Part shown: positions 28,128 to 63,656 of the stretch, in pieces
How positions within the stretch are numbered: position 1 is the stretch's first letter
How the letters are laid out: each line of letters starts with the position of its first letter
DNA from: an uncultured bacterium
Lineage (GTDB): Bacteria > Patescibacteriota > Minisyncoccia > Phycocordibacterales > CAIZLB01
Direction: 5' to 3'
DNA length: 64,000 nucleotides
Assembly: GCA_903936565.1 (NCBI GenBank)
Contig: CAIZVZ010000009.1
Coordinates: 44,840 to 108,839, forward strand
Notes under the pieces: generated by a model
The model's input: the letters and a program-made list of their open reading frames with translations, nothing else
Databases searched by the model: none
Told to the model about the DNA's origin: nothing
Position numbers and translations under genes: made by a program

Positions 28128-28166
28128 ATCCGTCTCGCCCTCAGGGGCGCGGCGGATGTTTTTTAA
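28128..28166 (+). terminator. rho-independent terminator (conserved between cassettes)
   Basis: atccgtctcgccctcaggggcgcggcggat followed by gtttttt. Confidence 0.6.
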
Positions 28167-28202
28167 TTTATATGTTTTTAATAAATAGTCACCACCCCCC
28201 CC

Positions 28203-28231
28203 TTGACATTATACACATATGTGCTACTATT
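28203..28231 (+). promoter_or_regulatory. promoter-like TTGACA-16-TACTAT, homolog of 27323
   Basis: ttgacattatacacatatgtgctactat aligns with ttgacattttgtatatgtgtgataatat. Confidence 0.4.
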
Positions 28232-28295
28232 ATATAGTTATAGATCTTTTACATCCCTACTGAACACCTTGATGTTTTTTGATTTAAAATTCTTT

Positions 28296-28395
28296 TAAGC
28301 ATTCGGTTTGATTGCACATGCTTCTGTATTTATTTAATAAGTACATAAGCATGTGCAACCAATCCTACGAGAGGACGAAGTTGCCGAAACCAACA
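28296..28395 (+). promoter_or_regulatory. structured leader, copy B (covarying hairpin)
   Basis: Inner stem ttgattgcacatgcttctgta/tacataagcatgtgcaaccaa, followed by caatcctacgagaggacgaagttgccgaaacc. The stem middle differs from copy A, but pairing is preserved. Confidence 0.45.
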
Positions 28396-28413
28396 ACCAC
28401 TACTACCACTACC

Positions 28414-28947: not shown

Positions 28948-28980
28948 CCCGCCACTTGGCGGACCTCCGGTGCAAAAACA

Positions 28981-29018
28981 AATCCGTCCACCCTCCGGGG
29001 TGTGGCGGTGTTTTTTTA
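28981..29018 (+). terminator. rho-independent terminator, homolog of 28128
   Basis: atccgtccaccctccggggtgtggcggtg followed by tttttttat. Confidence 0.6.
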
Positions 29019-29157
29019 TTTGATTTATATTACTTCATTACCTAGTCCACACTCTCTAGATGAAGTTACCTAAACAACGTATTATTATGGCGGTCTCAGA
29101 TAGATATCTTTGACAAAGATTAATTGTACAAAACCGAACCAAGAAAGAACCAGATAA

Positions 29158-29739
29158 GTGAATGGAATACTCAGCAGAGAAATTGAAGCCAGATTCATTG
29201 TAAGCATTTGCCCCGAAGAAAAGGAGCCCGAGCAACTACGGCAGCTTACAATTGACCAACGATACTTGCGTGCCAAGGGACGCATCCGGCGTGTACGAAC
29301 CAAGATAGCTGGACAAGACAAAGAAAAGACGTCCGTTGTCTTGAATCGAAAATGGAAAATGGCGAATACGCTTGGAGGTAATTGGGAGATGGAACTCTGT
29401 CTTCCTAACACCTTCTTCATCGCCAGATTTTGCTTTTGGTTTCTGACCAAATTCCTCAGCGATCCAGCCTGTTACCCCATTCACAAGACCAGAACTGTTT
29501 ACGAATGGGATGGCGGCATGGAACTTGAATGGGACATATTCGCCAGCCAGCATGCCTTACCAGATGGACCATTTGGAATGTTGGAAGTTGAAGTGAGTGC
29601 AGGTTTTGACCTCGCTACGCTACAGGCCAAACTTCCCAAGTGGTTCGAGGTAAAGGATGACGTCACAGGACAAGCGTACTGGAGTAATGTGAATATTTCC
29701 CGACGGCTCCAAAGGATTTACCGCGGAAGAAGACAGTAA
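29158..29739 (+). CDS. CYTH-like (triphosphate tunnel metalloenzyme) domain protein (tentative)
   Basis: N-terminal EIEARFIV matches the CYTH EIERKFLV signature. An alternating-acid LEVEVS motif lies near the C-terminus. GC-rich. Confidence 0.45.
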   Translation: MNGILSREIEARFIVSICPEEKEPEQLRQLTIDQRYLRAKGRIRRVRTKIAGQDKEKTSVVLNRKWKMANTLGGNWEMELCLPNTFFIARFCFWFLTKFLSDPACYPIHKTRTVYEWDGGMELEWDIFASQHALPDGPFGMLEVEVSAGFDLATLQAKLPKWFEVKDDVTGQAYWSNVNISRRLQRIYRGRRQ

Positions 29740-50159: not shown

Positions 50160-50669
50160 ATGCAAACAATAAACCCAAATACACTCAACGGAATTGATCA
50201 GGAATACATTCCAGAAAAACCATTAAGTGAATACGAGCCAAGATTAACAGCGAGAGTATTCGTAATTGATTCAGAAAACAATATTGGATTAATAAGACAC
50301 CCTCCATCCAACATGCTCTTTCCACCAGGTGGCGGTGCAGAAAAAGGAGAAACTGTTTTCGAAGCTTCAACAAGAGAAGTGGCAGAAGAACTTGGTGTTG
50401 TGTGTACCCCAGTTGAGGACTTGGGAATCTTGGAGCATTACCATGACAAATGGATGAAGAAGTTTATAATTCATCACGTGTATGCAACCACGGACAAACA
50501 ATCTATAGAAGTGGATCTCGTAGACTATGATACTAATCTAGAAAGAGTCTGGGTGAGTATTGAAGAATATAGGAACATACTGGATAACTATCTCAAAAAT
50601 GAAAAACCTGATGATGTCTGGGCAAAAGCAATTTTATATTTCTTAGATGCATTTTCTTCCCATAAATAA
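50160..50669 (+). CDS. NUDIX hydrolase
   Basis: Canonical Nudix box GGGAEKGETVFEASTREVAEELGV. Confidence 0.8.
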   Translation: MQTINPNTLNGIDQEYIPEKPLSEYEPRLTARVFVIDSENNIGLIRHPPSNMLFPPGGGAEKGETVFEASTREVAEELGVVCTPVEDLGILEHYHDKWMKKFIIHHVYATTDKQSIEVDLVDYDTNLERVWVSIEEYRNILDNYLKNEKPDDVWAKAILYFLDAFSSHK

Positions 50670-50745
50670 AACGGGTAATGACAAAAAAATAAACTAACGA
50701 GTAGGATATCTGCTCGTTAGTTTATTTTAATCTAAGTTATACTCT

Positions 50746-52179
50746 CTACTTTATAGTAAAATAACCCTCGCTATCCGCGGATATTTTAGCGCCATCGAAA
50801 TCAATAATTCTTATTGAATAATCAGAACCACTAGGCAAAGTTGTTGGTATTTTCCAATCAAAATGATTCTCATTAGCATTTACACGTAATACAATCGACG
50901 CCTCACTAGAATCAAATGAAGAATCTGGATTGTGATATGTATCACTTCCCTTTCTTAATTTAATATATAGATTAGCAATACCTGGGGCATACCAACTTAT
51001 CCTATAAGTCGATCCTTTTTCGACAACTAATCCCGCCTTTGGATAAACAACCTTAATGTAAGGGTCTGACGTACTAACATACTTTGAAGAAACTTTAAAG
51101 TATGTATCGCTGTAATCATAATAGTATTTCACCCCCTTATCTGGTCCATCAGAACGAGTGTATGATACCAACATTCTATACGCTCCATCGGGCAAATCTG
51201 TTGGAACTTTCCATTGATACCCAGATGACACAAAGCCAATTGACTTTATTGCATTTGATTCAATAATTCCACCATTAACAACACCCTTTTGATAATTTTC
51301 TTCACTAATTAGGCTCACAGACGCTTTGTCGCCCTGAGAACCAATTGACCAAGTCCAATTTAGTGTATAGGTTTCTCCTTTAGTAAAATACTCACCTCCA
51401 TTTGGATAAATCACTGCAACATATTTTGTTGCCACTGGCACCACTACGGGCACTGGAGAAACCGTAACGACACCATCTGCGTTTATCACAGCTCGTAGTG
51501 CTGGGCCAAAGAATCCATCGGCTGGCGCAATACCTTTAGCTGTTTGATACTTAATAAGCGCATCTCTAGTCATTTCTCCAAAGTAGCTATTTAAGTAATT
51601 ACCCAAAATAAAACCCTTGGCATTTAGAAAGCACTTCAACCTAAGAACGTCATCACCATAATCTCCAATCTTTAAATTTCCAGTAAAAACGTGGGGCATA
51701 TTTGATGTACACGCTTGAAGATTTGTTGTCTCACTCGCTAGATTAGCTGGTGCTGAAATAATAACTGACGAGCTTGAAGTCGGAGTTACTGGAATATAGG
51801 TAGGTGGTGTTGGAATTGGGTTTTGAGTTATCACCCCTGAACAAGTTTGATTCTTGATCTTTTCTCTAGTTATTGGTCCAACATAGCCAGTTGGACTGAT
51901 ATTATTTTCCTGTTGAAACTTTTTAACCGCCTTAGTAGTCATAAGCCCAAAAAATCCAACTGGATTTGAATTGAGATACCCTGAGGTTTGTAAAAAATCC
52001 TGCAAAACTGACACTTCCCCATCTGTTTTTACATCAGTTGATTTGTATCTCAAATTATTAACAATGGTCACACAAGTTGAATCACCCTGTGGATCAATAT
52101 CCCCAACTTGTGCAAATCCAACTGTTGGAATTATTAATACGAGAATAGCAAAAAATGACCAAAATATTTTCTTATTCAT
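50746..52179 (-). CDS. secreted protein with two peptidoglycan-binding (PG_binding_1) domains and C-terminal beta-rich repeats
   Basis: Signal peptide. Two copies of D..V..LQ/K.FL...G......G.FG..T..A...FQ...G....G..GP. Confidence 0.6.
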   Translation of the reverse strand: MNKKIFWSFFAILVLIIPTVGFAQVGDIDPQGDSTCVTIVNNLRYKSTDVKTDGEVSVLQDFLQTSGYLNSNPVGFFGLMTTKAVKKFQQENNISPTGYVGPITREKIKNQTCSGVITQNPIPTPPTYIPVTPTSSSSVIISAPANLASETTNLQACTSNMPHVFTGNLKIGDYGDDVLRLKCFLNAKGFILGNYLNSYFGEMTRDALIKYQTAKGIAPADGFFGPALRAVINADGVVTVSPVPVVVPVATKYVAVIYPNGGEYFTKGETYTLNWTWSIGSQGDKASVSLISEENYQKGVVNGGIIESNAIKSIGFVSSGYQWKVPTDLPDGAYRMLVSYTRSDGPDKGVKYYYDYSDTYFKVSSKYVSTSDPYIKVVYPKAGLVVEKGSTYRISWYAPGIANLYIKLRKGSDTYHNPDSSFDSSEASIVLRVNANENHFDWKIPTTLPSGSDYSIRIIDFDGAKISADSEGYFTIK

Positions 52180-52280
52180 TTATTTAATTTATATTGTTAT
52201 GAAATAATAATACCATACCTAACACCTTACACATACAAACTTAACAACAGCCATCAAATTAGCTATACTTATAATCATAT

Positions 52281-52607
52281 ATGCATATAATACCCATACT
52301 CATCTTATTTGTAAGTGGAGCAATACTAACAGCCGGAGATTTAATTTTTAGAACATGGGTGGAAAAGGGATCGAATATGCACTCTATAATATATGTAGTT
52401 GGTATTTTTACATATCTAGTGGGTACAATGTTATTAGTTGAAAGCTATAAACATGATATAAACATAGTTTCTGCAGGAATAATACAAATATTATTTAACA
52501 CAATAATATTGGTTGTATTTACATATTTTTATTTCCACGAACCATTAACCGTTGTCCAAATCATTGGATTAGTACTTGGTCTCATTTCAATCTACCTAAT
52601 AGGTTAA
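52281..52607 (+). CDS. small 4-TM DMT/SMR-like membrane protein (108 aa)
   Basis: Four hydrophobic helices and SMR-like size. The TM1 glutamate typical of EmrE is not obvious. Confidence 0.4.
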   Translation: MHIIPILILFVSGAILTAGDLIFRTWVEKGSNMHSIIYVVGIFTYLVGTMLLVESYKHDINIVSAGIIQILFNTIILVVFTYFYFHEPLTVVQIIGLVLGLISIYLIG

Positions 52608-52673
52608 TACATTCATGAAGCTCAGAACATACACGCTGTTATCTTTTGGAAAAAGTTTATAATAAAAAATGAC

Positions 52674-52712
52674 CCCCGCCAGATGAATCTGAGCGGGGGC
52701 CGTGGTTTTAGA
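52674..52712. terminator. bidirectional terminator hairpin (cccccgccagatgaatctgagcggggg)
   Basis: On the minus strand the stem is followed by cattttttatta. It ends the Ter-island operon and abuts the SMR-like gene. Confidence 0.55.
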
Positions 52713-52749
52713 AGACTAGCTCTTGGCTTTTGAGGCCGTAAGTTTTGCC

Positions 52750-53541
52750 TTATTTCTTCAACCACTCGAGCAATTCGTCACCAATCAATTGCTCGTTGAC
52801 TTCCTCGTCCGTCATGTGCACGAACTTTTCGATGTCCCGGATAACGACCAGTCCGACATTCGGGAACTCGTCGCCGAGCTGCTCGATGTAGCGGAATGTG
52901 CTTGGCTGGTTTGAACAGCCAATGAACAGGTAGTAAACCTGGTCACCACGCTCCGCGGATTCCCGCAGTAAGCGACGTGTCGGTTCCTTGTCGTCACCAT
53001 TGTTGTCGCCGTCGGTGACGTGGATGACGAGTGCGCGTTTCTTGGTTTGCGTAGTCGTAACGACCGGCTCAGCGACAGGTTTTGCCCCGCCACCAAATAG
53101 CCGGCCGAGCATTCCACCACCCTGCGGTTTAGCAACGGTTTGATTGCCGCAGCCATAGCCGAAGTGTGCCAAGTTTTTGCGCAGGACGTGTGCATAGTCT
53201 GTACCGCCATTGTAGCCGGGGACTTTGTTGATGATGCACCGGGCGATGTAACCGTCATGGTCATTCTCCGTGATTTCACCCACGTAGTAAGCATGACTGG
53301 CCCCATCACTGAACGTGAACACGTCCATCTTCTTGTCGGGATCAAAGACCATCCCCCAAGGCACGAGCCGAGTGAGAAGTCCTTGAGTGAGGCCGTCTTG
53401 ATGTTCATCCCGGAAGCTCCCACTGACGTCCAAGTTGAACGCCAATTCCATTGGAGGCGGAATGTTGATGCCACGCTTCTGGAGCGAGAGGACAAGGCCA
53501 GCTGCTGCTTTGGTGAGGTTGAGTTGTAATGGTTGTTTCAC
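52750..53541 (-). CDS. von Willebrand factor A domain protein (TerY-like)
   Basis: MIDAS-like LDVSGSF motif and downstream HVTDGDNNGD. Last gene of the ter operon. Confidence 0.65.
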   Translation of the reverse strand: MKQPLQLNLTKAAAGLVLSLQKRGINIPPPMELAFNLDVSGSFRDEHQDGLTQGLLTRLVPWGMVFDPDKKMDVFTFSDGASHAYYVGEITENDHDGYIARCIINKVPGYNGGTDYAHVLRKNLAHFGYGCGNQTVAKPQGGGMLGRLFGGGAKPVAEPVVTTTQTKKRALVIHVTDGDNNGDDKEPTRRLLRESAERGDQVYYLFIGCSNQPSTFRYIEQLGDEFPNVGLVVIRDIEKFVHMTDEEVNEQLIGDELLEWLKK

Positions 53542-53556
53542 TTGTCTATTTGCTTT

Positions 53557-54609
53557 CTATTGTCTTAGTTGTTGTTTTAGCGAGTTGAGTATCCGACTGG
53601 TTTCGCCAATTTCAGTCGGGTTTGTTTGTTTGCTACCATGACGCCCTTTTAAGTTGGCGACACTTTCCATCCAAACAGGCAATGTATTGAACACGACCTG
53701 CTGAATGATAGTTGTCATTCTCATGGGTTGCTCGATTTGGTTATCCCTCGAGAAGGAGCCTGAGCGGATTTGCCCAAGTGTAAGAGTGAGACTAGCAGCG
53801 CGGTCTTCCAACCGCTGTGCTAAATCCTCTCTTGAAATGTTTCTGAAGTAATCCGCAACGACCAAGGCCGCTGTGAGACCTGCTTCAACGTCGTCGCTGA
53901 GTTCAGCTAGAGTTCTTGAGTTTCCTTCCAAACTTTTGCTTAAATCAACGAGTGAAGATATACAATCGCGCATCAACAGAGTGAGCTGATCAATTTCCCT
54001 CAATGCTTCTTCCAGTGATGGAAGTGTGTCGATTTCTGGTGTGGCCGCCCGCATTATCTTCGCGAACAATCCAGCACCTTTTTCAAACACCTTTTCAAGT
54101 CTGATGCTGCTGAGAATTTCCATCATCCTATTTATGTACGAAGTACTTTTTTGAATGACTTCTGATCCGAGCAGCTTTAGAGTTTCCGTGACCAGGTTGT
54201 TGTGCTTTTCCTGAAGGTGTTGCCCCCAAGTAATCACGTCAACCTGATCAAGTTCGTCTTGTCTAGTGGCTTCGACAATTCTAACCACCGCATCCAAGAC
54301 TGGCTCTTTCAAATTTGGAAATTTTATTTTGAGACCCTCTCGCTTTACTGGAATGCGCTTTCGCACGGAACCAGGAATGGCGGAGGGGGTCTGAACGAGA
54401 TTGATCTCAGGTTTTTTGACGACCTGCTCTGCAGCTTTTGTAGCTTGCGCATCACCATATTCATCTCCACCAATAACCGTAGGCTTTGCTTGTGCCGAAG
54501 TGGCAGCGCCACCCATGGTTGTCGGAGTGATTTTTGTGATTGGAGGTACGGCGCACTGAGCACTGTCACCAACAACACCATTACCAATAACAGTCGGTTT
54601 CATTTTCAT
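53557..54609 (-). CDS. TelA-like protein, diverged paralog
   Basis: 350 aa helical protein. Its N-terminus MKMKPTVIGNG...KPTVIGG parallels MKPTTMGAPTVIG of the TelA at 55522. Preceded by the same leader repeat. Confidence 0.5.
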   Translation of the reverse strand: MKMKPTVIGNGVVGDSAQCAVPPITKITPTTMGGAATSAQAKPTVIGGDEYGDAQATKAAEQVVKKPEINLVQTPSAIPGSVRKRIPVKREGLKIKFPNLKEPVLDAVVRIVEATRQDELDQVDVITWGQHLQEKHNNLVTETLKLLGSEVIQKSTSYINRMMEILSSIRLEKVFEKGAGLFAKIMRAATPEIDTLPSLEEALREIDQLTLLMRDCISSLVDLSKSLEGNSRTLAELSDDVEAGLTAALVVADYFRNISREDLAQRLEDRAASLTLTLGQIRSGSFSRDNQIEQPMRMTTIIQQVVFNTLPVWMESVANLKGRHGSKQTNPTEIGETSRILNSLKQQLRQ

Positions 54610-54647
54610 TTCTTGTGGTTGAAGTTTTCAAAGTGCTATGTAGGAAT

Positions 54648-54790
54648 TTCCTCGGACCAAAATTACGTCCTTCTCCCCACTAGATTCCAAACACCGTGTT
54701 TTGAATCTAGATGAGGAGGGCAACATTAATGGAGTTGCCCGTGAACCTGTGGTGGTTCCCAGCAAGAGAAAAGTTCTTGCTACTTGTTTC
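54648..54790 (-). repeat. about 130-140 bp conserved structured leader, copy 1 (upstream of the TelA-like gene)
   Basis: About 95% identical to 56786-56915. Contains hairpins ctagattccaaacaccgtgttttgaatctag and gggcaac...gttgccc. Confidence 0.7.
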
Positions 54791-54813
54791 TAATTGATCA
54801 AAACGGGTGGGTG

Positions 54814-55419
54814 TTATGAGAAGTACCCCAACACAGCGTTGAAGTCACCCATAAACCCGGAGCCGACCGGAGCGTACTCCCAACCCTTGTCGCTGCGAAT
54901 CAAGCTGCCCATCTGGACCGCATTAAACGCAGCAAATTCGTTGGTAAGTTGATACTCGCCGAGCACCTTGCCCTCGTCGTCCTTTATGGTGATCGATGCG
55001 GATTTGACACCAGCAAAGGTTGCACCACCGTGGACTGTGACGAAGATTGGGATTTCGTTGACTTCGCTTCCAACCTTGTCACCAAAGATAGTGATCAGTT
55101 CATCGATGTCCGTCGTAACACCAGTGCGTGCGTCACCCGAGTGAGTGAGTGCACCGCAAGGTGTGGAGAACGACCTGTCTTGATTCGTGACCAGCATCCC
55201 GTTGGGATTGGTACTTTTTGCGTTGTAGGTGCTGAGCACCTGGGCAAAGTCATTGACCTTTGCCCCGTTACCACCGTTGGTGGCGAGCAGCGCATGTGCA
55301 TCCACGTCGTGCGTGCTGTCCCAGCGAAGCTCCACCGTGAAGCGGGCGCCTTTGTTGAGTGACAGTTGCAGTTTCTGGACGACATCACCTGGTTTTGCTA
55401 ATGGAAGTGCCAATGGCAT
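54814..55419 (-). CDS. terD: TerD-family stress protein
   Basis: LRWDSTHDVDAHALL, CGALTHSGDARTG and DDEGKVLGEYQLTNEFAAFNAVQMGSLIR..GWEYAPVGSGF match TerD/CABP signatures. Start placed at MPLALPLAK instead of the ORF-track start at 55491. Confidence 0.8.
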   Translation of the reverse strand: MPLALPLAKPGDVVQKLQLSLNKGARFTVELRWDSTHDVDAHALLATNGGNGAKVNDFAQVLSTYNAKSTNPNGMLVTNQDRSFSTPCGALTHSGDARTGVTTDIDELITIFGDKVGSEVNEIPIFVTVHGGATFAGVKSASITIKDDEGKVLGEYQLTNEFAAFNAVQMGSLIRSDKGWEYAPVGSGFMGDFNAVLGYFS

Positions 55420-55476
55420 ATTTTTGTTTTTTCTTTGTTTCTGATTGTTGTTGTTTGTCGTGCGGTTTGGTTTCTC

Positions 55477-55504
55477 CCCGCGGGCGCGCACGCGCCCGCG
55501 GGGA
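55477..55504. promoter_or_regulatory. perfect 28 bp GC palindrome (ccccgcgggcgcgcacgcgcccgcgggg) in the telA-terD intergenic region
   Basis: Arms of 13-14 bp, entirely G/C. No T-tract. Confidence 0.4.
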
Positions 55505-55521
55505 TTCCCTTGACCTTCTGC

Positions 55522-56718
55522 TTACGCTTTAGGTTTCGAGGAAAGTTGTGCGAGCTCGCCACGCGCTTCGGCAAACATGCCACGCGCAGTGTCAAACTTT
55601 TTGAGATTTTCTGTTCTTGCTGTGTCGACCAACGCTTGAACCTCACCAGTTAAGGCAATAAGTTCTTGGAGTTGGTTCGCCTGTTGAAGCCTGTTGTCCC
55701 CCGGAGCGTTTGCCGCCGTGGTAACAACCTCCCTCATGAGAGTTCCGCGGATTTGTCCCAGCTGCCGATCGAGATCAGCTTGCTTTGCAGCTAGCTGTTG
55801 CACACCCTTGACCTGCATTGCTCCATGAAGAGCGATCAAGGTTGTTTTGATGGAACTGAAACGTGTTGTCGCGGTTGTCGCGGTTTCTTGCAGAGTTTGA
55901 ACCCCAGCCGCCTCGACCTGTTGAATGACCAACTGATCTGCAGGCAACCTGGAGAAAACACCTTCAAGTGCCAAAGCCCGAGATTCCAAAAGTTGAAGTT
56001 TGTTCTCCGCTTCTTGTAGATCAGACTGTGCCAACACACTATTCGCGTCCAACCTCGCCCGTCCAACCTCGGCTCGCGCCGACTCGAGAAACTTGTGAGC
56101 CACTACAGCAACAACTGCGAAGTCATTGATATGTTGACGATAAGTCCCTTTAAGCTGATTGAAACGCTGAAGTTCACGGAGGAGTTCATCCAAAGCTTGC
56201 GCCAATTCCTTCTCGAGGTTTTTCATCACCCCCATTAGGTCTTGAGTACGGCCCGAGACTAATTCACATACAGCTTCGTGTGCAGTATGAGCTGCATCCG
56301 CAACCGCACGCTTACTCATAAAGCCAAGGACTCTCGCCTTGAACCCCAGTTTTCCCGATTGAATCTGCTTGAGCAGATCGGGAAGTTTTGCATCCTCAAC
56401 ACCGCTTTGCAGGCGGTCAAAGAGTGCAAAAAGTTTCGGGTTTCTAGCGCGTTCGATCCCTGACAAGAACCCATCAAGGGTCTCGGTAAGTGCAATTTCA
56501 GCACCGTGTCCAATCATCAGAATGTCCCCCGACGTGATGTCAGAAAACCTCAGACCACTGAGCATAGCTTCCGCAGTTGGAATTTGCTCCGGCAACAGCG
56601 CGATTTGTCCCGCATTACCCGCAAGGGCAACACTGAAGTCCGTCGCTTGTTGAGGAACCATTCCACTACCAGTTGATGCACCAATTACGGTCGGTGCCCC
56701 CATCGTTGTCGGTTTCAT
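55522..56718 (-). CDS. telA: TelA (toxic anion resistance / KlaA family) protein
   Basis: 398 aa, largely alpha-helical/coiled-coil, size and composition typical of TelA. Sits between TerC and TerD. Confidence 0.6.
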   Translation of the reverse strand: MKPTTMGAPTVIGASTGSGMVPQQATDFSVALAGNAGQIALLPEQIPTAEAMLSGLRFSDITSGDILMIGHGAEIALTETLDGFLSGIERARNPKLFALFDRLQSGVEDAKLPDLLKQIQSGKLGFKARVLGFMSKRAVADAAHTAHEAVCELVSGRTQDLMGVMKNLEKELAQALDELLRELQRFNQLKGTYRQHINDFAVVAVVAHKFLESARAEVGRARLDANSVLAQSDLQEAENKLQLLESRALALEGVFSRLPADQLVIQQVEAAGVQTLQETATTATTRFSSIKTTLIALHGAMQVKGVQQLAAKQADLDRQLGQIRGTLMREVVTTAANAPGDNRLQQANQLQELIALTGEVQALVDTARTENLKKFDTARGMFAEARGELAQLSSKPKA

Positions 56719-56785
56719 GTTTGTTCTCTCTGTATCTAGGGCTATGTACCCCGTTTTGATTTTAGTTGTGAATGAGCATAGAGAT

Positions 56786-56915
56786 TTCTTCGGACCAAAT
56801 TACGTCCTTCTCCCTACTAGATTCCAAACACCGTGTTTTAAATCTAGATGAGGAGGGCAACATTAATGGAGTTGCCCGTGAACCTGTGGTGGTTCCCAGC
56901 AAGAGAAAAGTTCTT
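56786..56915 (-). repeat. conserved structured leader, copy 2 (upstream of telA)
   Basis: Near-identical to 54648-54790. Confidence 0.7.
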
Positions 56916-56960
56916 GCTACTTGTCTGAATCCCTAACCCCCTTGGGTCGGCGCCCCGCTG

Positions 56961-57809
56961 TTAGCAGAACAAATTGGTCTTCACAACCTTGAATATAATT
57001 CTCCCACCGTTCAGACTCCACCTAATAGGAATCGTCACGACATAAAAAAGTTTATCCAAGATCACTACAAACTTTTGTCCTACAACAAGCACCGGCTTAA
57101 GCACCTTTCGTCCAATTCGCGACTCCGCATACCATAAGCTGCACAAAGTGATTACCACGATGCCAACAAACTTGTGTACGGAGTTGATGTGAAAATGAAT
57201 TTGAAAGTGTTCAAGCGACAGTTCAACCAACAGAATGAACCCAACAAAGCCAACTAGCATGAAAGCCGTCTTCTGCAAAATCGGAAATCTTTCAATCAGC
57301 TTGATGCAGTAACCTGCAACGAATCGCAGCGCCAGAATGCCAATGAAGACACCGAGGCATACGACCCACAAGCGCTTGTCCAGCGCGACGGCCGCCACTA
57401 CGTTATCCAGCGACAACGAGAGGTCCATGATTTCGATTTGTATTACTGTTGCGACCAGGCTTTTGTAAACCTTAGCCGAGCCGCTTTCATGGATCTCCTC
57501 CTCTGTTTTGCCAGAGAGATGTTCCACCATGAGATAGACTAGGTACAACGCACCAAATATCTTCAACCACGGATTCGAGGCGATAAACGCCACAAGCGCC
57601 AAAGCTAGACCACGAAACGCGTACGCCCCAATGATACCCAACCTCAACGCCTGCTTCTGTTGCTTCTTTGGCAGATCGCTTGCCATCGCGGCAATCGCCA
57701 TCGCGTTATCGACGGAGAGCAAGCCCTCAATCAAGATAAGCGATAATATTACGGGGATTGCTGTACTGAATTCACTCAGAGTGGGCAATTGTGAGAACAC
57801 GGCAGTCAT
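56961..57809 (-). CDS. terC: TerC-family integral membrane protein
   Basis: Two LSxDN repeats (LSVDNAMAIAAMA and LSLDNVVAAVAL). About 7 TM helices. Confidence 0.8.
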   Translation of the reverse strand: MTAVFSQLPTLSEFSTAIPVILSLILIEGLLSVDNAMAIAAMASDLPKKQQKQALRLGIIGAYAFRGLALALVAFIASNPWLKIFGALYLVYLMVEHLSGKTEEEIHESGSAKVYKSLVATVIQIEIMDLSLSLDNVVAAVALDKRLWVVCLGVFIGILALRFVAGYCIKLIERFPILQKTAFMLVGFVGFILLVELSLEHFQIHFHINSVHKFVGIVVITLCSLWYAESRIGRKVLKPVLVVGQKFVVILDKLFYVVTIPIRWSLNGGRIIFKVVKTNLFC

Positions 57810-58163
57810 TTCTATTTTCTTTATTTGTTGTTTCTGTTTTCTCTACAAATTACCAGTCTTCCGAGACTAGATTTGTTAGAGTATGAAATCTGCAGAATCA
57901 AATGCCGTGCACATTTGAAATACAGACTTCATGCTCTAACAAATCCTTAAGGTTTTAAATGAGCTCTATGAATTAACTTGACATACTGTATATTTCTGGT
58001 GCTAATGATAATCCGTTTCGCAAAGTTGTCAATATTTATTAGACGTTCAGAGGGCTATAAATCTATCTTTTTCTGGATGAATCTTTACAAGATACAATAA
58101 AGGCTTAAAATATACTAATCTGGAATAATTGCTTTTGTGATACGTCTAGTTTTAATTAGACGT

Positions 58164-59801
58164 TTAGTACTGATTGAAATTTCCTTCCTTTAATAAGCCT
58201 CTTTCTTCTAAAATACGAGTCAATATTTCGAAGTTACTTTTATACATTGGCATACCAGAATATCCGTCCCCCACTATTCCGTTATATAGATCGTAAAGTA
58301 CTAAATCGTTAAGTCTTCCTAGAAAACACGCAAGCTCAGACTCATCCTTATTAGATAATATGAATTTACATACACGAGCATTTAGGATAAAGTCGCCTGA
58401 CGATATAATTTCTAATAATTTATCTAATCCATCTACCCACCCATGATTCATCACACTTTCAATATCAGGATGCAAAGTAGCAAAATTATTTTCCATATCA
58501 GCAACATACAAGAAATAGGCTTCCTTGATGTTTTTATTTTTTAAGAATGAAACTAAATTGTTTTCATGTGACCCAGTAATTCGAGCATCATCAATCAATA
58601 CAATTATCTTGTTCTTAATAAAGCCCTCCATGATACTTAGATCATTTTTATTCATTAATGACTTTCTTTCTTCGTCCGAGAATGAACCATAATCACCCTG
58701 AAACATTTCCTTTTTTAGAATTGTAATATCAACGACAGAATTTTTACCCATCATAAATAGATATTGATTAATATAATTCTTGAATCCCTTAACGATACCG
58801 CTGGAACCTTTTACAATTGACTTGTAGGGAGAAGTTGTGATTACTAAATCTATATTGTCATTTGTGCTAAATATTTCAGGATTAGCTGAAATAAACTTCT
58901 TAGCTAATTGATGTCCATATTCTTTAGCAACCTTTCCATCTCCATACTTGAATTTGCTGTAGGAAATTAAATCAAATTCGTTTTTTACAACATCTCGATT
59001 CTCATCCTTAGGATTATCTTTTACAATTTCAACTATTTTATCTTCCTCAAAATCCAACTGACACAATGATAAATTGTCATAATGTAAAACTCTTTCATCA
59101 CTGCGCACAATGGACACCAACTCACCTATATCTTTTATGCCTGCAAATCTCTTTGCGTATTTATCAGATGGATCAAACAATAAAGACGAGATACCACTTT
59201 TCCATGCTCCTCTATAGTCGGCAATTAAACTATCCCCTACATGCAGAATTTCATAAGGAAAACATTTAGATTCTTTCACAAGCTGATCATAAATATAAAG
59301 ATGAGGTTTTGCACAACCAACTTCATTTGAGAAATAGGTGTAATCAACCAAATCAAGTACACCCAATTCTTTAAGCCCCCTTCTCATTACATCACCATGT
59401 AAAAAACCAGTATTACTAATCAATGCAATTTTTACACCAAGATTTTTAAGATCTTTCAAAATTTCAAACGTATCTGGATTAATTAGGATCGGTAAATTAT
59501 CCATAAACAGCAAGGATAATTCGCCCCTAAGCTTCTCAACGTGTTTGTCGTCTAAATCCTCGGAAGTGTTGTTTATTTTTTGATTAATCAAATTCAGTCT
59601 TGATTCGAAATCAAAATCAATTCCAACCGCTTCAGATAATCTATCCAACTCAACATCAACTTCATCTTTTACAGATTTCACCAAATCATAATCAGAGCAA
59701 TTAATCGCATCTCCAAATAGTACTGTTCGCTTTTTAACAAAATCAGAATTACTTTTTAACAATGTCTTCCAGACATCGAAACTAATTATTTTATATTTCA
59801 T
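58164..59801 (-). CDS. HAD-superfamily phosphatase fused to a PRTase-like domain protein (545 aa)
   Basis: HAD motif I SFDVWKTLL, motif II ISNTG, motif III K (KPHLYIY), motif IV VGDSLIADY. C-terminal half has a PRTase-type motif KIIVLIDDARITGSHE. Mid-region shares YSKFKYGD with the next gene. Confidence 0.55.
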   Translation of the reverse strand: MKYKIISFDVWKTLLKSNSDFVKKRTVLFGDAINCSDYDLVKSVKDEVDVELDRLSEAVGIDFDFESRLNLINQKINNTSEDLDDKHVEKLRGELSLLFMDNLPILINPDTFEILKDLKNLGVKIALISNTGFLHGDVMRRGLKELGVLDLVDYTYFSNEVGCAKPHLYIYDQLVKESKCFPYEILHVGDSLIADYRGAWKSGISSLLFDPSDKYAKRFAGIKDIGELVSIVRSDERVLHYDNLSLCQLDFEEDKIVEIVKDNPKDENRDVVKNEFDLISYSKFKYGDGKVAKEYGHQLAKKFISANPEIFSTNDNIDLVITTSPYKSIVKGSSGIVKGFKNYINQYLFMMGKNSVVDITILKKEMFQGDYGSFSDEERKSLMNKNDLSIMEGFIKNKIIVLIDDARITGSHENNLVSFLKNKNIKEAYFLYVADMENNFATLHPDIESVMNHGWVDGLDKLLEIISSGDFILNARVCKFILSNKDESELACFLGRLNDLVLYDLYNGIVGDGYSGMPMYKSNFEILTRILEERGLLKEGNFNQY

Positions 59802-59826
59802 GTTTTTTAATTTAATAAGGAGAATT

Positions 59827-60720
59827 TTATAAAGTGAATGAAGGAATACCGGGATTATCTGTTTTAATTAATTGATGATGTCTAATTCTAGATTCTTGTC
59901 TCACCACCTCAAAGCCCTTAGCATACTTTTCGACAGAACCATAACCATCATTAACGCTAGAAATGTAGAGTCCAAAAAGCATTTCATCACTTAGACGTTT
60001 ACAGAAATCTTCAAGCTCTTCTTGATTTTCCCAAGAAAGGATAAATCTACACAGACGAGAATTCAAAACAAATTCATCTGGTTTTTTCATCAACAGTTGC
60101 AGAGTGTCCAAATCATTTACCCATTTGTGATTAATTCGATTTTCAATATCGGGATCGTTTTTACCCGAACCCACATCAACTACATAGATAAATATAATCT
60201 CTTCAAGGCCTGCTTTTTCCATAAAATCTATAATTTTTTGCTCGTGGGCGCCTGTAATTCTAGCGTCTTCAACCAATATCAATCTTTTTCCTTTTAGCAA
60301 AAATGGATCAAAGGAAAGGGTGTCTCTCTTCATATTTTCTAGCCTTTCTCTGTGTGATAATTTACTGAAATCACAGACTGGAGCTGAGGACCTATGAATT
60401 TTTAAAAAGGTTAAGGGTTGATTCTTAGCAGATAACAAAAGCTCATTTAGCATGTAGTGGAAATACATAGCCAAAGAATTTGCTGATGGCGGTGTATACC
60501 AATAAGGTGAAGTAGACACAATGAACTCACTACTTTCTCCAGAAATTTTTTCTAAGGAAAATTTATTCAAAAACTCCGACATCATACTTTCAGCAAATTT
60601 CATTGCTGTAGGTTTGTGACCATACTTAAATTTACTGTACTCAGTGAAATCGAGTGTTGGTTTATTTTCTAAATTATTTTCGGCATCTATTGTGTACGCA
60701 GATATTCTGTTGATTTTCAT
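59827..60720 (-). CDS. PRTase-like domain protein, paralog of the C-terminal half of 58164..59801 (297 aa)
   Basis: LILVEDARITGAHE, YSKFKYGH, and a ...LNSRLCRFILS...NDGYG block aligned with the upstream gene. Confidence 0.5.
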   Translation of the reverse strand: MKINRISAYTIDAENNLENKPTLDFTEYSKFKYGHKPTAMKFAESMMSEFLNKFSLEKISGESSEFIVSTSPYWYTPPSANSLAMYFHYMLNELLLSAKNQPLTFLKIHRSSAPVCDFSKLSHRERLENMKRDTLSFDPFLLKGKRLILVEDARITGAHEQKIIDFMEKAGLEEIIFIYVVDVGSGKNDPDIENRINHKWVNDLDTLQLLMKKPDEFVLNSRLCRFILSWENQEELEDFCKRLSDEMLFGLYISSVNDGYGSVEKYAKGFEVVRQESRIRHHQLIKTDNPGIPSFTL

Positions 60721-60942
60721 ATTGTTGTTTTTATTTTTAAATAATGTGCAACAGTTTTAATCAATTGTGTCAATGTGTCAATAACTAATAGACATAATGG
60801 AAGAGTACATTCCACTTTATTCTGGAATAACAAATAAAGCCCTTTATAAGGGCTTTAAATATGCTTCATTGAAATATTATTCTATATTTTATGTCTAATA
60901 ACAGTTAGACAAGTAAAAGTATCTCTGTCCCGGAAACTACTT

Positions 60943-61701
60943 TTACTTCTTTGCACCCCTTTCTGCTAACTTAAAAATACTCGTTAGGGTCTGCGCAAAT
61001 TCTGGATTTTTTATCAAAATTCCATAAATTGTATCCCCCAGCATGTGAATTCTGACCTCGTCTTCGAATATGTTTATGTCGCAAGAAAGTGGAAATTCAT
61101 CTTGATCTATCTTGAATGCAACCTGACCCTCTCTTGGCTTAATTTCTCCATCATCACATGTATAAATTACGCTATACAAATTATTCCCCTCTAAACGCAA
61201 GTTAATATATTTCTTTAGATTTTTTGATCTAAATAATTTGTATACCAACTCTAGTGGAAATACTCCGTAATCCATCTCTGTTCTAAATCTAGGGTTATTT
61301 GCCAACTCTTCCATAGAAGACTTAACAGCAGCATCCCCTTCGAAGAACTTTATAATAGGAGCCTGACCCTTTTTCCTAAGTGTTGCCTTAAGTTGAGGTA
61401 TTACAATATCTAAGCTTTTAATACTCTCCTCTGTTTTGAGTTTAAGCTCTTCCAAAATGAAACGGAGTCTTTCTGGATCTTCCGCTTGGTATGACAATCT
61501 TTTACCAACATTAACCTCACGCACTAATCCCTTTTCCTTCAATAAATCTAGGATTACATAAGCGGTAGATCTTTTTAGTTTTACTTCCTTGGCGATCTCA
61601 GCGGGTGTTGCAGATTCTGTAGACAAAAGAAACACATATACAACTATTTCCTTTTGTGAGATTCCTATATTTTTAAGATAGCTATAAAAGTTTAAATTCA
61701 T
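60943..61701 (-). CDS. TrmB-like winged-helix transcriptional regulator
   Basis: N-terminal GISQKEIVVYVFLLSTESATPAEIAKEVKLKRSTAYVILDLLKEKGLVRE matches TrmB-family HTH. Confidence 0.55.
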   Translation of the reverse strand: MNLNFYSYLKNIGISQKEIVVYVFLLSTESATPAEIAKEVKLKRSTAYVILDLLKEKGLVREVNVGKRLSYQAEDPERLRFILEELKLKTEESIKSLDIVIPQLKATLRKKGQAPIIKFFEGDAAVKSSMEELANNPRFRTEMDYGVFPLELVYKLFRSKNLKKYINLRLEGNNLYSVIYTCDDGEIKPREGQVAFKIDQDEFPLSCDINIFEDEVRIHMLGDTIYGILIKNPEFAQTLTSIFKLAERGAKK

Positions 61702-62051
61702 GGAAATTGATTTAATTAGTATTTAATAATGATACCACATAAATAACCCTTAACACCATACGGCTAGAATACTTAACAAAACTCTTTAAATCTTCCACAC
61801 TTTTATATAAATCTTCTCACCCCAAAAACCCAGCGACGGTATATCTCCATTCGCTGTCTTGGCAATAATTTGGTATTTTTATGTATACAACAAAAGTGCG
61901 TATGTTAATTTTGTTAATTATCCTTCATCAGACTTAACAATTTTGGCATACGCCTTTTGTGATTTCAAAGGCCAGAGTGTGAACAGCGTTAAGTTATTGT
62001 AATTTACATACTCTATGTTAAAATTTACAATACAACAATTAAAATAAAATA

Positions 62052-63656
62052 ATGAAAAAAAAATATTTACATTTAACTTTAATAATTTCTGGTATTTTAT
62101 TATTAGCTTTAGGTGCAAGTATTTTGGTAGCAAAATATATAGAGAACAAATCTACGTTGACGTCTAGAATATCAAATGCATTTTCAAGTTACCCCCTCTA
62201 TGTATACACAAATGGTGGTAACGGATCAGGGACGATAACAGTAGGACTGAATGGTCGAAAGTCTAATATTCAGAGGACAAATATTGATGGTCAAATTTTT
62301 AAATTTGGAGATGTCGTAAAACTTACCGCTACCCCATACATGGATTCAACTTTTGTTTCTTGGAAGGGATGTGATTCATTATCGGGTGAATTAAATAGTG
62401 TGTGTAATATAAAGATATCAGCCTCAACAACAGTAATAGCAAATTTCAAAATGAATAGTAAGGGTGCTGCTCTTATGCTTTCTGAATTAAAATTACAACA
62501 ACAGACAACAAATGATTTAGATGTGTCCATAATGCAGATAGAAACATTAAAGCAATTTGATTTTATCTCTAAGACAATCGGATTTAATGATGTAGAAGAG
62601 AAAAATAATTTTAACAGTGCCATTAAAGAAGCTATCGAAAATGGAAATATCATAAATTTATATTTTTCAGAGTCTTATGAAGAAGAAAGTATTGGGTATT
62701 TTCCAGAAGACTATAGAGAAATAATAAAAAATAGATATTTAAATTCTTCAATACTCTTGGCTGGTAAGGGCGAAGGAAATAGAAAGGTTGTAAAAGTTTC
62801 AAAGTCTCCTGCGGTTAACCTCCATAGTTATTCTTTAGACACAACGCCAATTTTAAACAAAAATATGTGGGGTGGTATATGCGGTTTATTGTCAATCATA
62901 CAAAATCTTAATTATGTACTTGTGCCTAGTGCAACTTTACCTAATGGCTTTCCAGCTCCTACTTATACTGCGCAAGGAAAGTTATATTGGGATAAGTTGT
63001 ATATGGAAAAAGTAATCAATCTGGTAAAAATTTACAGTAATGAAATTGGACTTCTTAATTCCAAATATATTTCAATTTATAGAGAATACACTAAAAGAAA
63101 TGTTCGGAGTACCGGGTGGAATTATAAACCTAATTCTTCTGGCGAAATTGATGGGTCTCTCTCTGTGGGTGATAATTTTAAAAATCTCTCCGATTTATTT
63201 AGTATAAAAGGTGGTAAAAGAGATACTGTTTGTCACCTTATTACATATCATACCAATACAGTTTATTACAACGCTTTTGGTGCGGAATACAATACTCCAC
63301 AAAAAGTGGAATCTACACATTCTAGTCCTATTGTTGGTATATCAATGGGTTCTACTGTTCAATCACCATCCGAAGCATTTGTCTCTGGTGCTATTTCTGC
63401 CATGTCAACCCCTTCTCCTGTAAAATCAATAGTTATCATGGATACCATGTATCAAGGCTCACATGTACATGATGATAATAAAGCCAAAAAGTATGAAGAT
63501 ATCCCAGTAAAAACAGGAACAATTAAATTTATTTTAAAAGATGATGGCTCACTTAACATAAGCTCTTATAACGGAATTAGTAAATCTGTAAAGGCAGAGT
63601 TTGATAAAATTAATAAAACAAAGACATTTTATATTCAGTGTTATACATTTAAATAA
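62052..63656 (+). CDS. membrane-anchored/secreted hypothetical protein (534 aa)
   Basis: N-terminal TM or signal peptide. No known domain recognised. Confidence 0.5.
   Translation: MKKKYLHLTLIISGILLLALGASILVAKYIENKSTLTSRISNAFSSYPLYVYTNGGNGSGTITVGLNGRKSNIQRTNIDGQIFKFGDVVKLTATPYMDSTFVSWKGCDSLSGELNSVCNIKISASTTVIANFKMNSKGAALMLSELKLQQQTTNDLDVSIMQIETLKQFDFISKTIGFNDVEEKNNFNSAIKEAIENGNIINLYFSESYEEESIGYFPEDYREIIKNRYLNSSILLAGKGEGNRKVVKVSKSPAVNLHSYSLDTTPILNKNMWGGICGLLSIIQNLNYVLVPSATLPNGFPAPTYTAQGKLYWDKLYMEKVINLVKIYSNEIGLLNSKYISIYREYTKRNVRSTGWNYKPNSSGEIDGSLSVGDNFKNLSDLFSIKGGKRDTVCHLITYHTNTVYYNAFGAEYNTPQKVESTHSSPIVGISMGSTVQSPSEAFVSGAISAMSTPSPVKSIVIMDTMYQGSHVHDDNKAKKYEDIPVKTGTIKFILKDDGSLNISSYNGISKSVKAEFDKINKTKTFYIQCYTFK

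Follow-up and report, generated by a model that had tools for sequence, protein, structure and literature searches.

A GC-rich Ter-type operon that is probably a long-standing resident of an AT-rich CPR lineage

Ter stress-response and phage-resistance systems were reportedly defined by comparative genomics by Anantharaman, Iyer and Aravind in 2012. The classical operon for tellurite resistance is terZABCDEF, known from IncHI2 plasmids and from E. coli O157. The comparative-genomic definition of Ter systems is summarised in PMC7824862 (section 3.4.10), and group 3 Caulobacter jumbo phages carry abbreviated TerD/TerC/TerF/TelA operons (PMC7824862). Here we describe a Ter-type operon in a 64-kb stretch of DNA (the window) from a genome whose GyrA is 80-82% identical to those of Pacebacteria, Paceibacterota and Parcubacteria MAGs. 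The operon is much richer in GC than its surroundings. We conclude, with a probability of about 0.62, that it forms the effector part of a Ter-type system, for stress or phage resistance, that has long resided in a Paceibacteria/Parcubacteria-like CPR lineage, and that its GC-richness is not the scar of a recent transfer but is held in quasi-equilibrium, a GC3 of about 0.5 being kept up in AT-rich genomes.

The compositional step is real. The block from 52713 to 57860 is 49.6% GC and the remainder of the window 37.8%; counted by the kilobase, GC is 0.45-0.53 from 53 to 58 kb and 0.31-0.475 everywhere else. The borders are sharp and match the operon ends: in 200-bp windows GC rises between 52.6 and 52.8 kb and falls between 57.7 and 57.9 kb, with internal peaks of 0.56-0.575. 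The mean of about 50% makes the 52-58% of the first-pass annotation slightly high, but sliding-window GC and codon use both bore out the anomaly itself. The shift is at synonymous sites, and codon use is uniformly GC-shifted. GC3 is 0.44-0.65 (mean 0.557) in the five genes of the operon and 0.321 (SD 0.079) in the 45 other genes of the window, and four-fold sites are A.19 C.26 G.27 T.28 in the block versus A.40 C.10 G.10 T.39 in host genes. Base composition and codon use are atypical in the way expected of a recently acquired genomic island.

The block contains five genes, in the order TerC, X, TerD, Y and vWA, and all lie on the minus strand, as had been noted before:

56961..57809, minus strand: TerC-family membrane protein, YkoY subfamily (PF03741, 159 bits; TIGR03716, 197 bits against a cut-off of 138.5; GC3 0.59)
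55522..56718, minus strand: X, a 398-aa all-helical, remotely TelA-like protein (no Pfam match of its own; homologs weakly match PF05816)
54814..55419, minus strand: TerD-domain protein, 201 aa from ATG (PF02342, 70.9 bits against a cut-off of 25.3)
53557..54609, minus strand: Y, 350 aa, with a disordered N-terminus bearing (K/R)PT(V/I)IG repeats and a helical-bundle body
52750..53541, minus strand: TerF-type vWA protein with a DxSxS MIDAS motif (DVSGS) (PF10138, 55.6 bits against a cut-off of 29.4; GC3 0.65)

The Pfam matches of TerC, TerD and the vWA protein all exceed curated cut-offs, and these three gene calls of the first-pass annotation stand. TerD also aligns with Klebsiella TerD 2KXT (E 5e-11), including the GDxRTG motif. 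A 225-aa TerD reading frame from GTG is probably over-extended; gene calls for the orthologs in relatives are 200-207 aa long. The two genes that had been called TelA have remote support only. Neither X nor Y has a Pfam match, even at E up to 10, and at E up to 1 TelA was matched by 0 of 20 members of the X family, which comprises 188 representatives at 50% identity. Four other X homologs match PF05816 (TelA) in consistent regions, with E of 1e-5 to 1e-6 and 24-29 bits, below the cut-off of 30, and a distant profile match, P0380, scores 43 bits on TelA. For Y, the evidence consists of a JGI 'YaaN' label on one ortholog and an hhalign probability of 51% to X, of which Y is possibly a distant paralog. 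At best, these comparisons would make X and Y remote relatives of TelA. With PADLOC models, the five proteins gave a single weak match, of HEC-01B to Y (E 0.0017, 16 bits). The module had been described as complete, a description that does not hold: TerB was not matched among the genes scanned from 50160 to 63656, the one TerD-domain gene of the module is accompanied by no TerZ/A/E/F paralogs, and the PRTase_3 and HAD-PRTase_3 genes to which it is tied in function, together with the TrmB gene, lie beyond the block in low-GC DNA.

These low-GC genes and the regulatory sites of the two operons are as follows:

60943..61701, minus strand: TrmB-family HTH regulator (PF01978, 50.5 bits; GC 0.35, GC3 0.32)
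60893..60910, no strand assigned: palindrome GTCTA-N8-TAGAC, putative operator upstream of the PRTase operon (motif search)
60776..60793, minus strand: GTCTA-N7-TTGACA, putative operator half-site directly next to the -35 box in the promoter of the PRTase operon (motif search and sequence)
59827..60720, minus strand: PRTase_3, a ComF-like phosphoribosyltransferase (PF15610, 132.4 bits; GC 0.34, GC3 0.30)
58164..59801, minus strand: HAD phosphatase fused to PRTase_3 (PF00702, PF13419 and PF15610, the last with 156 bits; GC 0.32, GC3 0.28)
58144..58161, no strand assigned: second copy of the GTCTA-N8-TAGAC palindrome, upstream of the promoter of the Ter operon (motif search)
58005..58044, minus strand: promoter of the Ter operon, TTGACA-16-TATCAT, its -35 box directly adjoined by a GTCTA-N7 half-site (11/12 consensus matches)

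The PRTase and Ter promoters share one operator architecture. The palindrome has exactly two matches in the window, one before each operon, where 0.21 are expected by chance; the half-site joined to TTGACA likewise has exactly two, one before each operon (0.10 expected; at least two in 0/100 shuffles). The palindrome recurs in the equivalent spacer of four other loci (L009, L011, L016 and L101), and the Ter operon promoter is conserved in L098, L099, L101 and L016. The gene neighbourhood is conserved as well. A TrmB ortholog adjoins the Ter block in L098, L016, L100, L009, L011, L072, L103, L105 and L106, and linkage of PRTase/HAD to Ter genes is found in L071, L080, L087, L088, L098, L103 and L106. 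The PRTase_3 of the window is 47-54% identical to the PRTase beside the Ter block of the Saccharibacteria loci L080, L087 and L088.

Several RNA elements accompany the operon:

57853..57946, minus strand: 5'-leader RNA with a long hairpin and, after it, a small terminator-like one (MFE -47.6 kcal/mol, z -7.3)
57870..57853, minus strand: terminator-like stem in the leader
56791..56901, minus strand: structured RNA motif, copy a, in the TerC-X spacer (CM R1, 112.5 bits)
54654..54764, minus strand: structured RNA motif, copy b, in the TerD-Y spacer (CM R1, 112.8 bits)
about 52673..52699, no strand assigned: bidirectional intrinsic terminator, a hairpin separating the vWA gene from a convergent EamA-like gene (-25 kcal/mol; z -5.1 and -5.6 on the two strands)

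The inverted repeat at 57862-57935, previously read as a border of the island, exists, but it lies downstream of the operon promoter and is a conserved hairpin of the 5' UTR. The leader alignment of five lineages has compensatory changes in 8 of 29 predicted pairs, and yybP-ykoY (RF00080) gave no match in this leader, whether at the gathering threshold or with E allowed up to 10. The two intercistronic copies are a direct repeat with 98% identity, one before each TelA-like gene (X and Y), and the motif is supported by covariation. It has no match in Rfam 15, E-value mode included, where the search returned spurious miRNA hairpins at E above 0.1. The bidirectional terminator proposed at the other edge of the block is real and has a U-run on the minus-strand transcript.

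At least four related species (L098, L016, L099/L100 and L101) have the Ter block at this locus, with similarly raised GC and shared flanking genes, whereas an island recently gained would be absent from sister genomes. This is the outcome that the first-pass annotation had itself named as refuting a recent acquisition. In L098 the gene order is TsaD-TrmB-PRT2-HADPRT-TerC-X-TerD-Y-vWA, and X is 91% identical. In L016 TrmB is 94% and X 81% identical, with TrxR (86%) and FtsZ (84%) in the right flank; the PRTases and TerC are missing from that locus. In L099-L101 the place of TerC has been taken by a variant that is 38% identical and still GC-rich. Thus, the locus does exchange genes. A concatenated neighbor-joining tree places the window in a clade of nine low-GC loci (200/200 bootstraps), and that clade stands apart from the proteobacterial/Chloroflexi type (200/200). 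The closest relatives of the block are all on other low-GC contigs, probably CPR. The cluster also occurs in Paceibacteria-type, Saccharibacteria and Uhrbacteria loci, contrary to the expectation that reduced low-GC genomes lack such modules. Relatives were not found in IMG/VR; a single match, 47% identical, is in a 'Bacteriophage sp.' record.

The GC split is recurrent. In 13 of 13 low-GC lineages examined, the Ter genes are 0.44-0.62 GC and the flanks 0.32-0.44, and PRTases adjoining the Ter genes are host-like, with GC3 about 0.3 in L080, L087, L088, L098, L101 and L103 (0.35-0.41 in L106). Even the ranking of the genes is repeated in most lineages examined, with Y lowest or near-lowest in GC3 and TerC, TerD and vWA generally highest. 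In the Saccharibacteria pair L080/L088, synonymous sites are saturated in Ter genes and PRTases alike (p4 0.52-0.67), yet GC4 is 0.52-0.75 in the former versus 0.2-0.3 in the latter. The recurrence of the split in all these lineages, including the saturated pair, indicates that the composition of the block is a stable property. High GC is not intrinsic to the module, since in Bacteroidota-type loci the same four genes match their host in GC (0.415 vs 0.425 in L075; 0.419 vs 0.417 in L086).

Could the split have a more trivial or more recent origin? A chimera of two organisms, made in assembly or binning, would produce just such an abrupt change inside one contig. However, the block is not a chimera, because these junctions came out of at least four independent metagenome assemblies with differing contig-naming schemes (scaffold_, k141_, Ga...). 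Gene order is identical over both junctions in these independent samples, synteny is kept in diverged relatives, and promoter, operator motifs and leader span the junction; we consider this explanation virtually dismissed. A single recent acquisition from a high-GC organism (an actinobacterium, a proteobacterium, or a host or partner), still short of amelioration, was the reading of the first-pass annotation and would fit the strongly atypical GC and GC3, the sharp borders and the frequency of the four-gene core in high-GC Proteobacteria and Chloroflexi. It is very unlikely in the face of the shared locus in relatives, the saturated Saccharibacteria pair and the operator motifs common to the block and the low-GC operon. 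Homology searches found no close high-GC donor among 5.8 billion proteins; outside the low-GC clade of the window the best identity is at most 50% for X, the limit also for its best non-CPR match, and about 61% for TerD. As had been noted, ORFs and the Pfam scan revealed no integrase or transposase. The block also has no flanking direct repeats (direct repeats are internal only) and no tRNA target, the nearest tRNAs being at 49.7-50.0 kb. Moreover, synonymous sites show no decay toward host composition. With two concordant outgroups, 39 polarised synonymous changes in the block are S->W (GC->AT) and 39 are W->S (AT->GC), against an expected S->W share of 0.72-0.81 (p 7e-5 to 5e-10); the test is approximate parsimony with diverged outgroups, and flanking genes, taken as controls, display the bias expected from mis-polarisation. 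The same 1:1 ratio, where 3-4:1 is expected, makes an ancient acquisition with slow but ongoing amelioration quite improbable. The somewhat lower GC of the L016 block (0.463, vs 0.496 in the window) and the Bacteroidota-type loci at host GC would suit such a process. However, the more divergent L013, L103 and Saccharibacteria are higher in GC3 than the window, not lower, and the L080/L088 contrast survives saturation.

A further alternative is recurrent re-import, in which a mobile Ter cassette keeps being replaced, as a whole or piecemeal, through homeologous recombination with alleles of a GC-richer gene pool, so that its composition reflects the average of its host range and not local selection. 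The replacement of TerC in L099-L101 and the variable gene content of the locus are in keeping with this process, as are relatives on contigs of GC 0.50-0.63 (L010/L011 and Uhrbacteria L071) and the presence of X-TerD-Y-vWA on conjugative plasmids of Alphaproteobacteria. Identity to L098 is mosaic, running from 0.87-0.99 in the leader and TerC to 0.75-0.90 in vWA, and four-fold divergence from L098 is 0.19-0.32 in the Ter genes and 0.49-0.61 in the flanks. Together with a leader that is 97-99% identical in DNA, where flanking genes are 65-88%, this lower synonymous divergence could reflect recent between-lineage recombination instead of constraint. On the other hand, the protein divergence of the block equals or exceeds that of the flanks despite the smaller synonymous divergence, all inspectable relatives with X at least 79% identical sit within low-GC flanks at the same locus, a donor is missing from the proteins searched, and the gene-specific GC3 ranking is repeated from lineage to lineage. 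We regard re-import as a possible but rather doubtful account of the whole pattern. Selection, biased gene conversion and recurrent re-import are all candidate causes of the GC-richness of the resident operon, and we favor selection on synonymous sites in situ or GC-biased gene conversion.

We postulate that the resident operon belongs to a three-part system, with a TrmB-family regulator, a low-GC PRTase/HAD operon and the GC-rich TerC-X-TerD-Y-vWA operon, whose component roles would follow those of Ter systems (PMC7824862, section 3.4.10). By analogy with other Ter systems, the two ComF-like PRTases, one of them HAD-fused, might make a nucleoside or nucleotide-like signal. The TrmB-family protein is likely a repressor or activator of both operons and could act through the GTCTA motifs. 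TerC, being of the YkoY type, might transport a divalent metal, and TerD could bind Ca2+ or the signal. X and Y, as helical bundles of TelA-like type, may assemble beneath the membrane together with the vWA protein, which bears a MIDAS motif, and resist entry of phage or toxic compounds, and the RNA motif may gate synthesis of X and Y. It is conceivable, though we think it unlikely, that the GC-rich state is actively selected in AT-rich CPR genomes (e.g., by constraints of mRNA structure or regulated translation for membrane-active proteins) and that the RNA motif is a riboswitch-like sensor of the nucleoside-like PRTase/HAD product, which would together give Ter systems a complete circuit from signal synthesis through an RNA sensor to effectors.

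Atypical GC is routinely taken as a sign of recent horizontal transfer. The Ter block is a clean counter-example, because it occupies the same locus in relatives, its GC split recurs in low-GC lineages that are only distantly related, its operators are shared with native low-GC genes and its composition shows no decay. It raises the question of what force holds GC3 near 0.5 when the four-fold sites of the genome are 20% GC. Among ultra-small CPR bacteria, whose defences against stress and phages are little understood, Ter-type systems with PRTase/HAD partners also turn up repeatedly. The four-gene operon X-TerD-Y-vWA is widespread, and X and Y are annotated as 'hypothetical' in the two RefSeq plasmid records inspected. 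The covariation-supported RNA motif could open Ter regulation to experiment.

The locus resembles several known systems in part. Like horizontally acquired genomic islands, it has atypical GC and codon use and sharp borders; unlike them, it has no mobility genes, keeps the same locus in relatives, shares operators with native genes and is compositionally stationary. Its TerC resembles the YkoY/MeeY-type TerC under the yybP-ykoY Mn2+ riboswitch in its TIGR03716 ('R_switched_YkoY') score and its long structured leader, but that leader is a different hairpin. With terZABCDEF it shares TerC and TerD homologs; it differs in having neither TerB nor the TerZ/A/E/F series and in having TelA-like genes inside the operon. 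The jumbo-phage operons are similarly short and have the same four component types, if the remotely TelA-like proteins are counted, but the operon of the window is chromosomal. Like the Ter systems of comparative genomics, the locus combines TerC, TerD, a TerF-type vWA protein and remotely TelA-like helical proteins with adjoining PRTase/HAD 'signal biosynthesis' genes. It departs from them in having one TerD domain, no TerB and TelA-like proteins under the Pfam threshold, and further in its TrmB with shared operators, its new intercistronic RNA motif, its CPR host and the split in composition between its operons.

The Ter operon stands out from the rest of the window in base composition. GC content per kilobase is 0.45-0.53 from 53 to 58 kb and 0.31-0.475 in all other parts of the window; in 200-bp windows it rises at 52.6-52.8 kb, drops at 57.7-57.9 kb and peaks at 0.56-0.575. 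The first-pass annotation had noted a GC jump over approximately 5.1 kb, and this is confirmed (0.496 for 52713-57860, 0.378 for the remainder of the window). Its figure of 52-58% is slightly too high as a mean. A second, milder patch of raised GC content (0.45-0.55) lies at 27410-29739 and contains a pair of genes for small, membrane-anchored proteins that are paralogs of each other (27410-28117 and 28312-28947; GC3 of the second 0.66) and a 193-aa open reading frame; its proteins have no Pfam matches.

Features of the Ter locus
60943-61701, minus strand: TrmB-family regulator, upstream of the Ter operon
59827-60720, minus strand: PRTase_3, upstream of the Ter operon
58164-59801, minus strand: HAD-PRTase_3 fusion, directly upstream of the Ter operon
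57809..56961, minus strand: TerC (PF03741, 159 bits; YkoY subfamily TIGR03716, 197 bits)
56791-56901 and 54654-54764, minus strand: two copies of an RNA motif, upstream of the two TelA-like genes
56718..55522, minus strand: X, 398 aa, no Pfam match of its own
56718..56670 (X residues 1-15, alignment A1) and 54609..54460 (Y residues 1-50, alignment A2): (K/R)PT(V/I)IG regions
55419..54814, minus strand: TerD (PF02342; aligned to Klebsiella TerD 2KXT with E 5e-11, GDxRTG kept)
54609..53557, minus strand: Y, 350 aa, no Pfam match of its own
53541..52750, minus strand: vWA protein of the TerF type (PF10138; MIDAS motif DVSGS)
L099 379-1239, L100 684-1544, L101 1858-2694: variant TerC in three related contigs

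The GC signal is synonymous, as GC3 is 0.44-0.65 in the five Ter genes, all on the minus strand (mean 0.557), compared to 0.321 (SD 0.079) in the 45 other genes of the window. Four-fold sites are nearly uniform in the Ter genes (A.19, C.26, G.27, T.28) and AT-rich in host genes (A.40, C.10, G.10, T.39). Amino-acid composition can be set aside as the source of the high GC content, since the signal is present at four-fold sites. Translational codon selection is likewise rejected: every codon family in the Ter genes is shifted toward both G and C, and 18 reference host genes (among them housekeeping genes, for example those for GyrA, FtsZ and an S1-domain protein) remain AT-rich. An assembly artefact at the junctions is ruled out, because independent samples and assemblies share an identical gene order over both borders.

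The first-pass annotation took the block for a likely recent horizontal acquisition, possibly from a high-GC host or partner organism. GyrA of the window is 80-82% identical to proteins from Pacebacteria, Paceibacterota and Parcubacteria MAGs, which makes the host a bacterium of the CPR (a group of ultra-small bacteria), Paceibacteria type. The block occurs at the same locus in related contigs, the very finding that the first-pass annotation had said would refute recent acquisition. Contig L098 has the order TsaD-TrmB-PRT2-HADPRT-TerC-X-TerD-Y-vWA, and its X is 91% identical. The GTDB species genome L016 (Loclat bin) has the locus without TerC and without both PRTases (TrmB 94%, X 81%, TerD 84%, Y 75% and vWA 80% identical), and its right flank is syntenic with the window (TrxR 86%, FtsZ 84%). 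L099/L100 and L101 (X 79-80%) have, in place of the TerC of the window, a paralog that is 38-39% identical to it and equally GC-rich (GC3 0.64-0.66). Elsewhere in the window, 43361-48640 encodes a secreted subtilase of 1759 aa that carries FG-GAP and peptidoglycan-binding domains and is missing from the corresponding interval of the sister genome L016.

No high-GC donor is visible: beyond the window's own low-GC clade, the best identity is no higher than 50% for X and near 61% for TerD, which speaks against a recent foreign origin. The X-TerD-Y-vWA core occurs in several phyla among GTDB species genomes scanned with the X alignment, namely in Alpha-, Beta- and Gammaproteobacteria, Chloroflexi, Bacteroidota-type and Gemmatimonadota contigs, and CPR. 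The view that reduced low-GC genomes normally lack such modules does not stand, as Saccharibacteria and Uhrbacteria carry the core. The YkoY-type TerC and two PRTases are added to it in CPR-type loci only. In a neighbor-joining tree (concatenated, 1137 columns, 200 bootstraps), the window groups with low-GC loci in a clade of nine (200/200), and this clade, together with Saccharibacteria and the Bacteroidota type, is split from the proteobacterial/Chloroflexi type (200/200). A search of metagenome contigs with the PRTase alignment for more CPR loci recovered L098 only. As to a phage origin, an IMG/VR scan gave no relatives, and one unannotated 'Bacteriophage sp.' record matches at 47%.

The core is also plasmid-borne in Agrobacterium, Sphingobium and Novosphingobium, and in the Novosphingobium and Agrobacterium records, the two that were inspected, the RefSeq labels read hypothetical, TerD family, hypothetical and VWA. 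On Novosphingobium pLA4 (L096) and Agrobacterium pQ15_94_5 (L097), the operon adjoins metal transporters (NRAMP-type, P-type ATPase and CDF). In a gammaproteobacterial MAG (L017, 7500-14264), the block has a GC content of 0.59 and, with about 2.5 kb upstream, is distinct from its 0.44-GC flanks; here, unlike in the window, the island may be genuine and recent. The related contigs L009 (18378-19847) and L010 (7444-9059) have, a few kilobases downstream of the Ter block, a second TerC gene that is longer (352-359 aa) and is paired with a DUF305/DUF4142 gene.

The compositional split recurs in 13 low-GC lineages (the window, L098, L016, L099, L101, L013, L103, L105, L106, L009, Saccharibacteria L080, L087 and L088), with GC contents of 0.44-0.62 in the Ter genes and 0.32-0.44 in the flanks. 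Adjacent PRTases, where present, have host GC3, even when they are downstream of the vWA gene (L087). Synonymous changes between the window and L098, polarized with two concordant outgroups, number 39 from GC to AT and 39 from AT to GC. For a block relaxing to host equilibrium (GC3 0.2-0.3), 72-81% GC to AT is expected (binomial p 7e-5 to 5e-10). Single outgroups give 74:96 and 79:74; polarization was by parsimony, and control genes show the expected mis-polarization bias. In Saccharibacteria L080 and L088, which are alike in gene order, the four-fold sites of both gene sets have reached saturation (p4 0.52-0.67), and GC4 is still 0.52-0.75 in the Ter genes and 0.2-0.3 in the PRTases. The ranking of GC3 is gene-specific: in most lineages Y is at or near the bottom, and the highest values are generally those of TerC, TerD and vWA. 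The balanced changes, the contrast at saturated sites and this ranking argue against a transient compositional state. High GC content is not intrinsic to the module, since the block is at host GC in the Bacteroidota-type loci L075 and L086.

We favor maintenance of the GC-richness in situ, either through selection that acts at synonymous sites or through GC-biased conversion; repeated re-import out of a pool of higher GC content is a serious rival. Recombination does act on the locus, as shown by the swap of TerC, by differences in gene content and by the mosaic identity profile of the block between the window and L098, with a leader that is 97-99% identical. Four-fold divergence between these two is 0.19-0.32 in the block and 0.49-0.61 in TrmB and the PRTases, and the block proteins are no more conserved than TrmB and the PRTases.

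The first-pass reading of the gene content was partly right. TerC, TerD and the TerF-type vWA protein are matched by profiles. X and Y find nothing in Pfam even at E up to 10, and sequence and profile searches of the PDB found no matches for either. X belongs to a well-conserved family of at least 329 homologs (188 representatives at 50% identity). Four members match TelA at 24-29 bits, slightly below the cut-off and in agreeing regions, and one distant profile hit reaches 43 bits on TelA, so that X can reasonably be called TelA-like, if remotely. The case for Y is thinner: one ortholog bears the JGI label 'YaaN', and profile-profile comparison with X gives a weak match (probability 51%, E 1.6e-4). 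The structure model of X is poor (pLDDT 59.5). That of Y (AF2, from an 11-sequence alignment) is all-helical (pLDDT 75) with non-specific fold matches; the best in the PDB by Foldseek are the alpha-pore-forming toxins ClyA, AhlB/C, SmhB, NheA and Hbl (weak, E 0.035-0.1, TM 0.3-0.39). Bacillus_HBL Pfam matches in 5 of 20 X homologs are also weak (E at least 0.01). These are hints of a possible membrane-active helical fold in the TelA-like proteins, too weak to claim. In both X and Y the N-terminus is disordered and contains the motif (K/R)PT(V/I)IG in one to four copies; its conservation extends from CPR to Proteobacteria, and it may be a short linear motif that binds TerD or the vWA MIDAS site. 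PADLOC defence models gave no meaningful match to the five Ter proteins or the PRTases.

The five genes had been called a complete module, and the functional cluster in fact runs on into the upstream HAD-PRTase_3, PRTase_3 and TrmB genes, which are on the same strand and at host GC (0.32-0.35). Two motifs are shared by the two operons, each with one copy before the PRTase operon and the other before the Ter operon. Within the 64 kb there are exactly two copies of the palindrome GTCTA-N8-TAGAC (0.21 expected), at 58144-58161 and 60893-60910, and the palindrome is also found in the equivalent spacers of L009, L011, L016 and L101. GTCTA-N7-TTGACA, a half-site abutting a -35 box, likewise occurs exactly twice (0.10 expected; two copies reached in 0 of 100 shuffles), at 58027-58044 and 60776-60793. 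The palindromes and promoter half-sites are probably a TrmB operator set, and from the motifs common to both operons we infer a two-operon regulon under TrmB control.

A promoter close to consensus (11/12 matches) precedes the Ter operon at 58032..58005. The inverted repeat previously read as an island border is a long hairpin in the low-GC leader downstream of this promoter, followed by a small terminator-like stem; together they form a conserved 5'-UTR element at 57853-57946 (minus strand). The 151-nt leader has an MFE of -47.6 kcal/mol (z -7.3), and compensatory changes affect 8 of 29 pairs predicted for the leader alignment across five lineages. Compared with L098, it is the most conserved DNA of the locus, though low-GC and non-coding. 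It matches no Rfam family, yybP-ykoY included, and a riboswitch in the TerC leader was rejected on that basis. The terminator after the vWA gene was correctly called.

The TerC-X and TerD-Y spacers share a 128-nt direct repeat (98% identical) that contains the RNA motif, which has only these two copies in the window. Besides its three helices, the motif has the purine tract UAGGGAGAAGG and a loop that is conserved as yUCCrUyAAU. The three-helix structure is formed in 17 copies from 11 lineages, with compensatory changes in 12 of 24 pairs (3.9±1.3 in shuffles, 1-3 in slid controls); in a 27-hit alignment, fitted to the model, 20 of 24 pairs covary. The covariance model gives 29 plus-strand matches (E <1e-7) in 1.49 Mb and a 26-bit match in Uhrbacteria L071. 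Other loci with the motif are L009, L010, L013, L016, L072, L078, L080, L087, L088, L090, L098, L099, L101, L103, L105 and L106. Every match lies either just ahead of X or in the spacer that follows TerD (in L090, X). The operons concerned are CPR-type, those of Saccharibacteria among them, apart from one Gemmatimonadaceae contig; the proteobacterial loci scanned have no match. No Rfam 15 family matches. We suggest that the motif is a cis-regulator gating the two TelA-like genes.

For Ter systems, the model of a 2012 paper, cited here through section 3.4.10 of PMC7824862, proposes PRTases and HAD phosphoesterases as a signal-biosynthesis arm, TerB and TerD as sensors, TerC as the membrane component, and TelA and the TerF vWA protein as sub-membrane components. 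The locus described here is a CPR variant of a Ter-type system, in which an RNA motif unmatched in Rfam 15 accompanies a stable GC-rich effector operon and a TrmB/PRTase partner operon.
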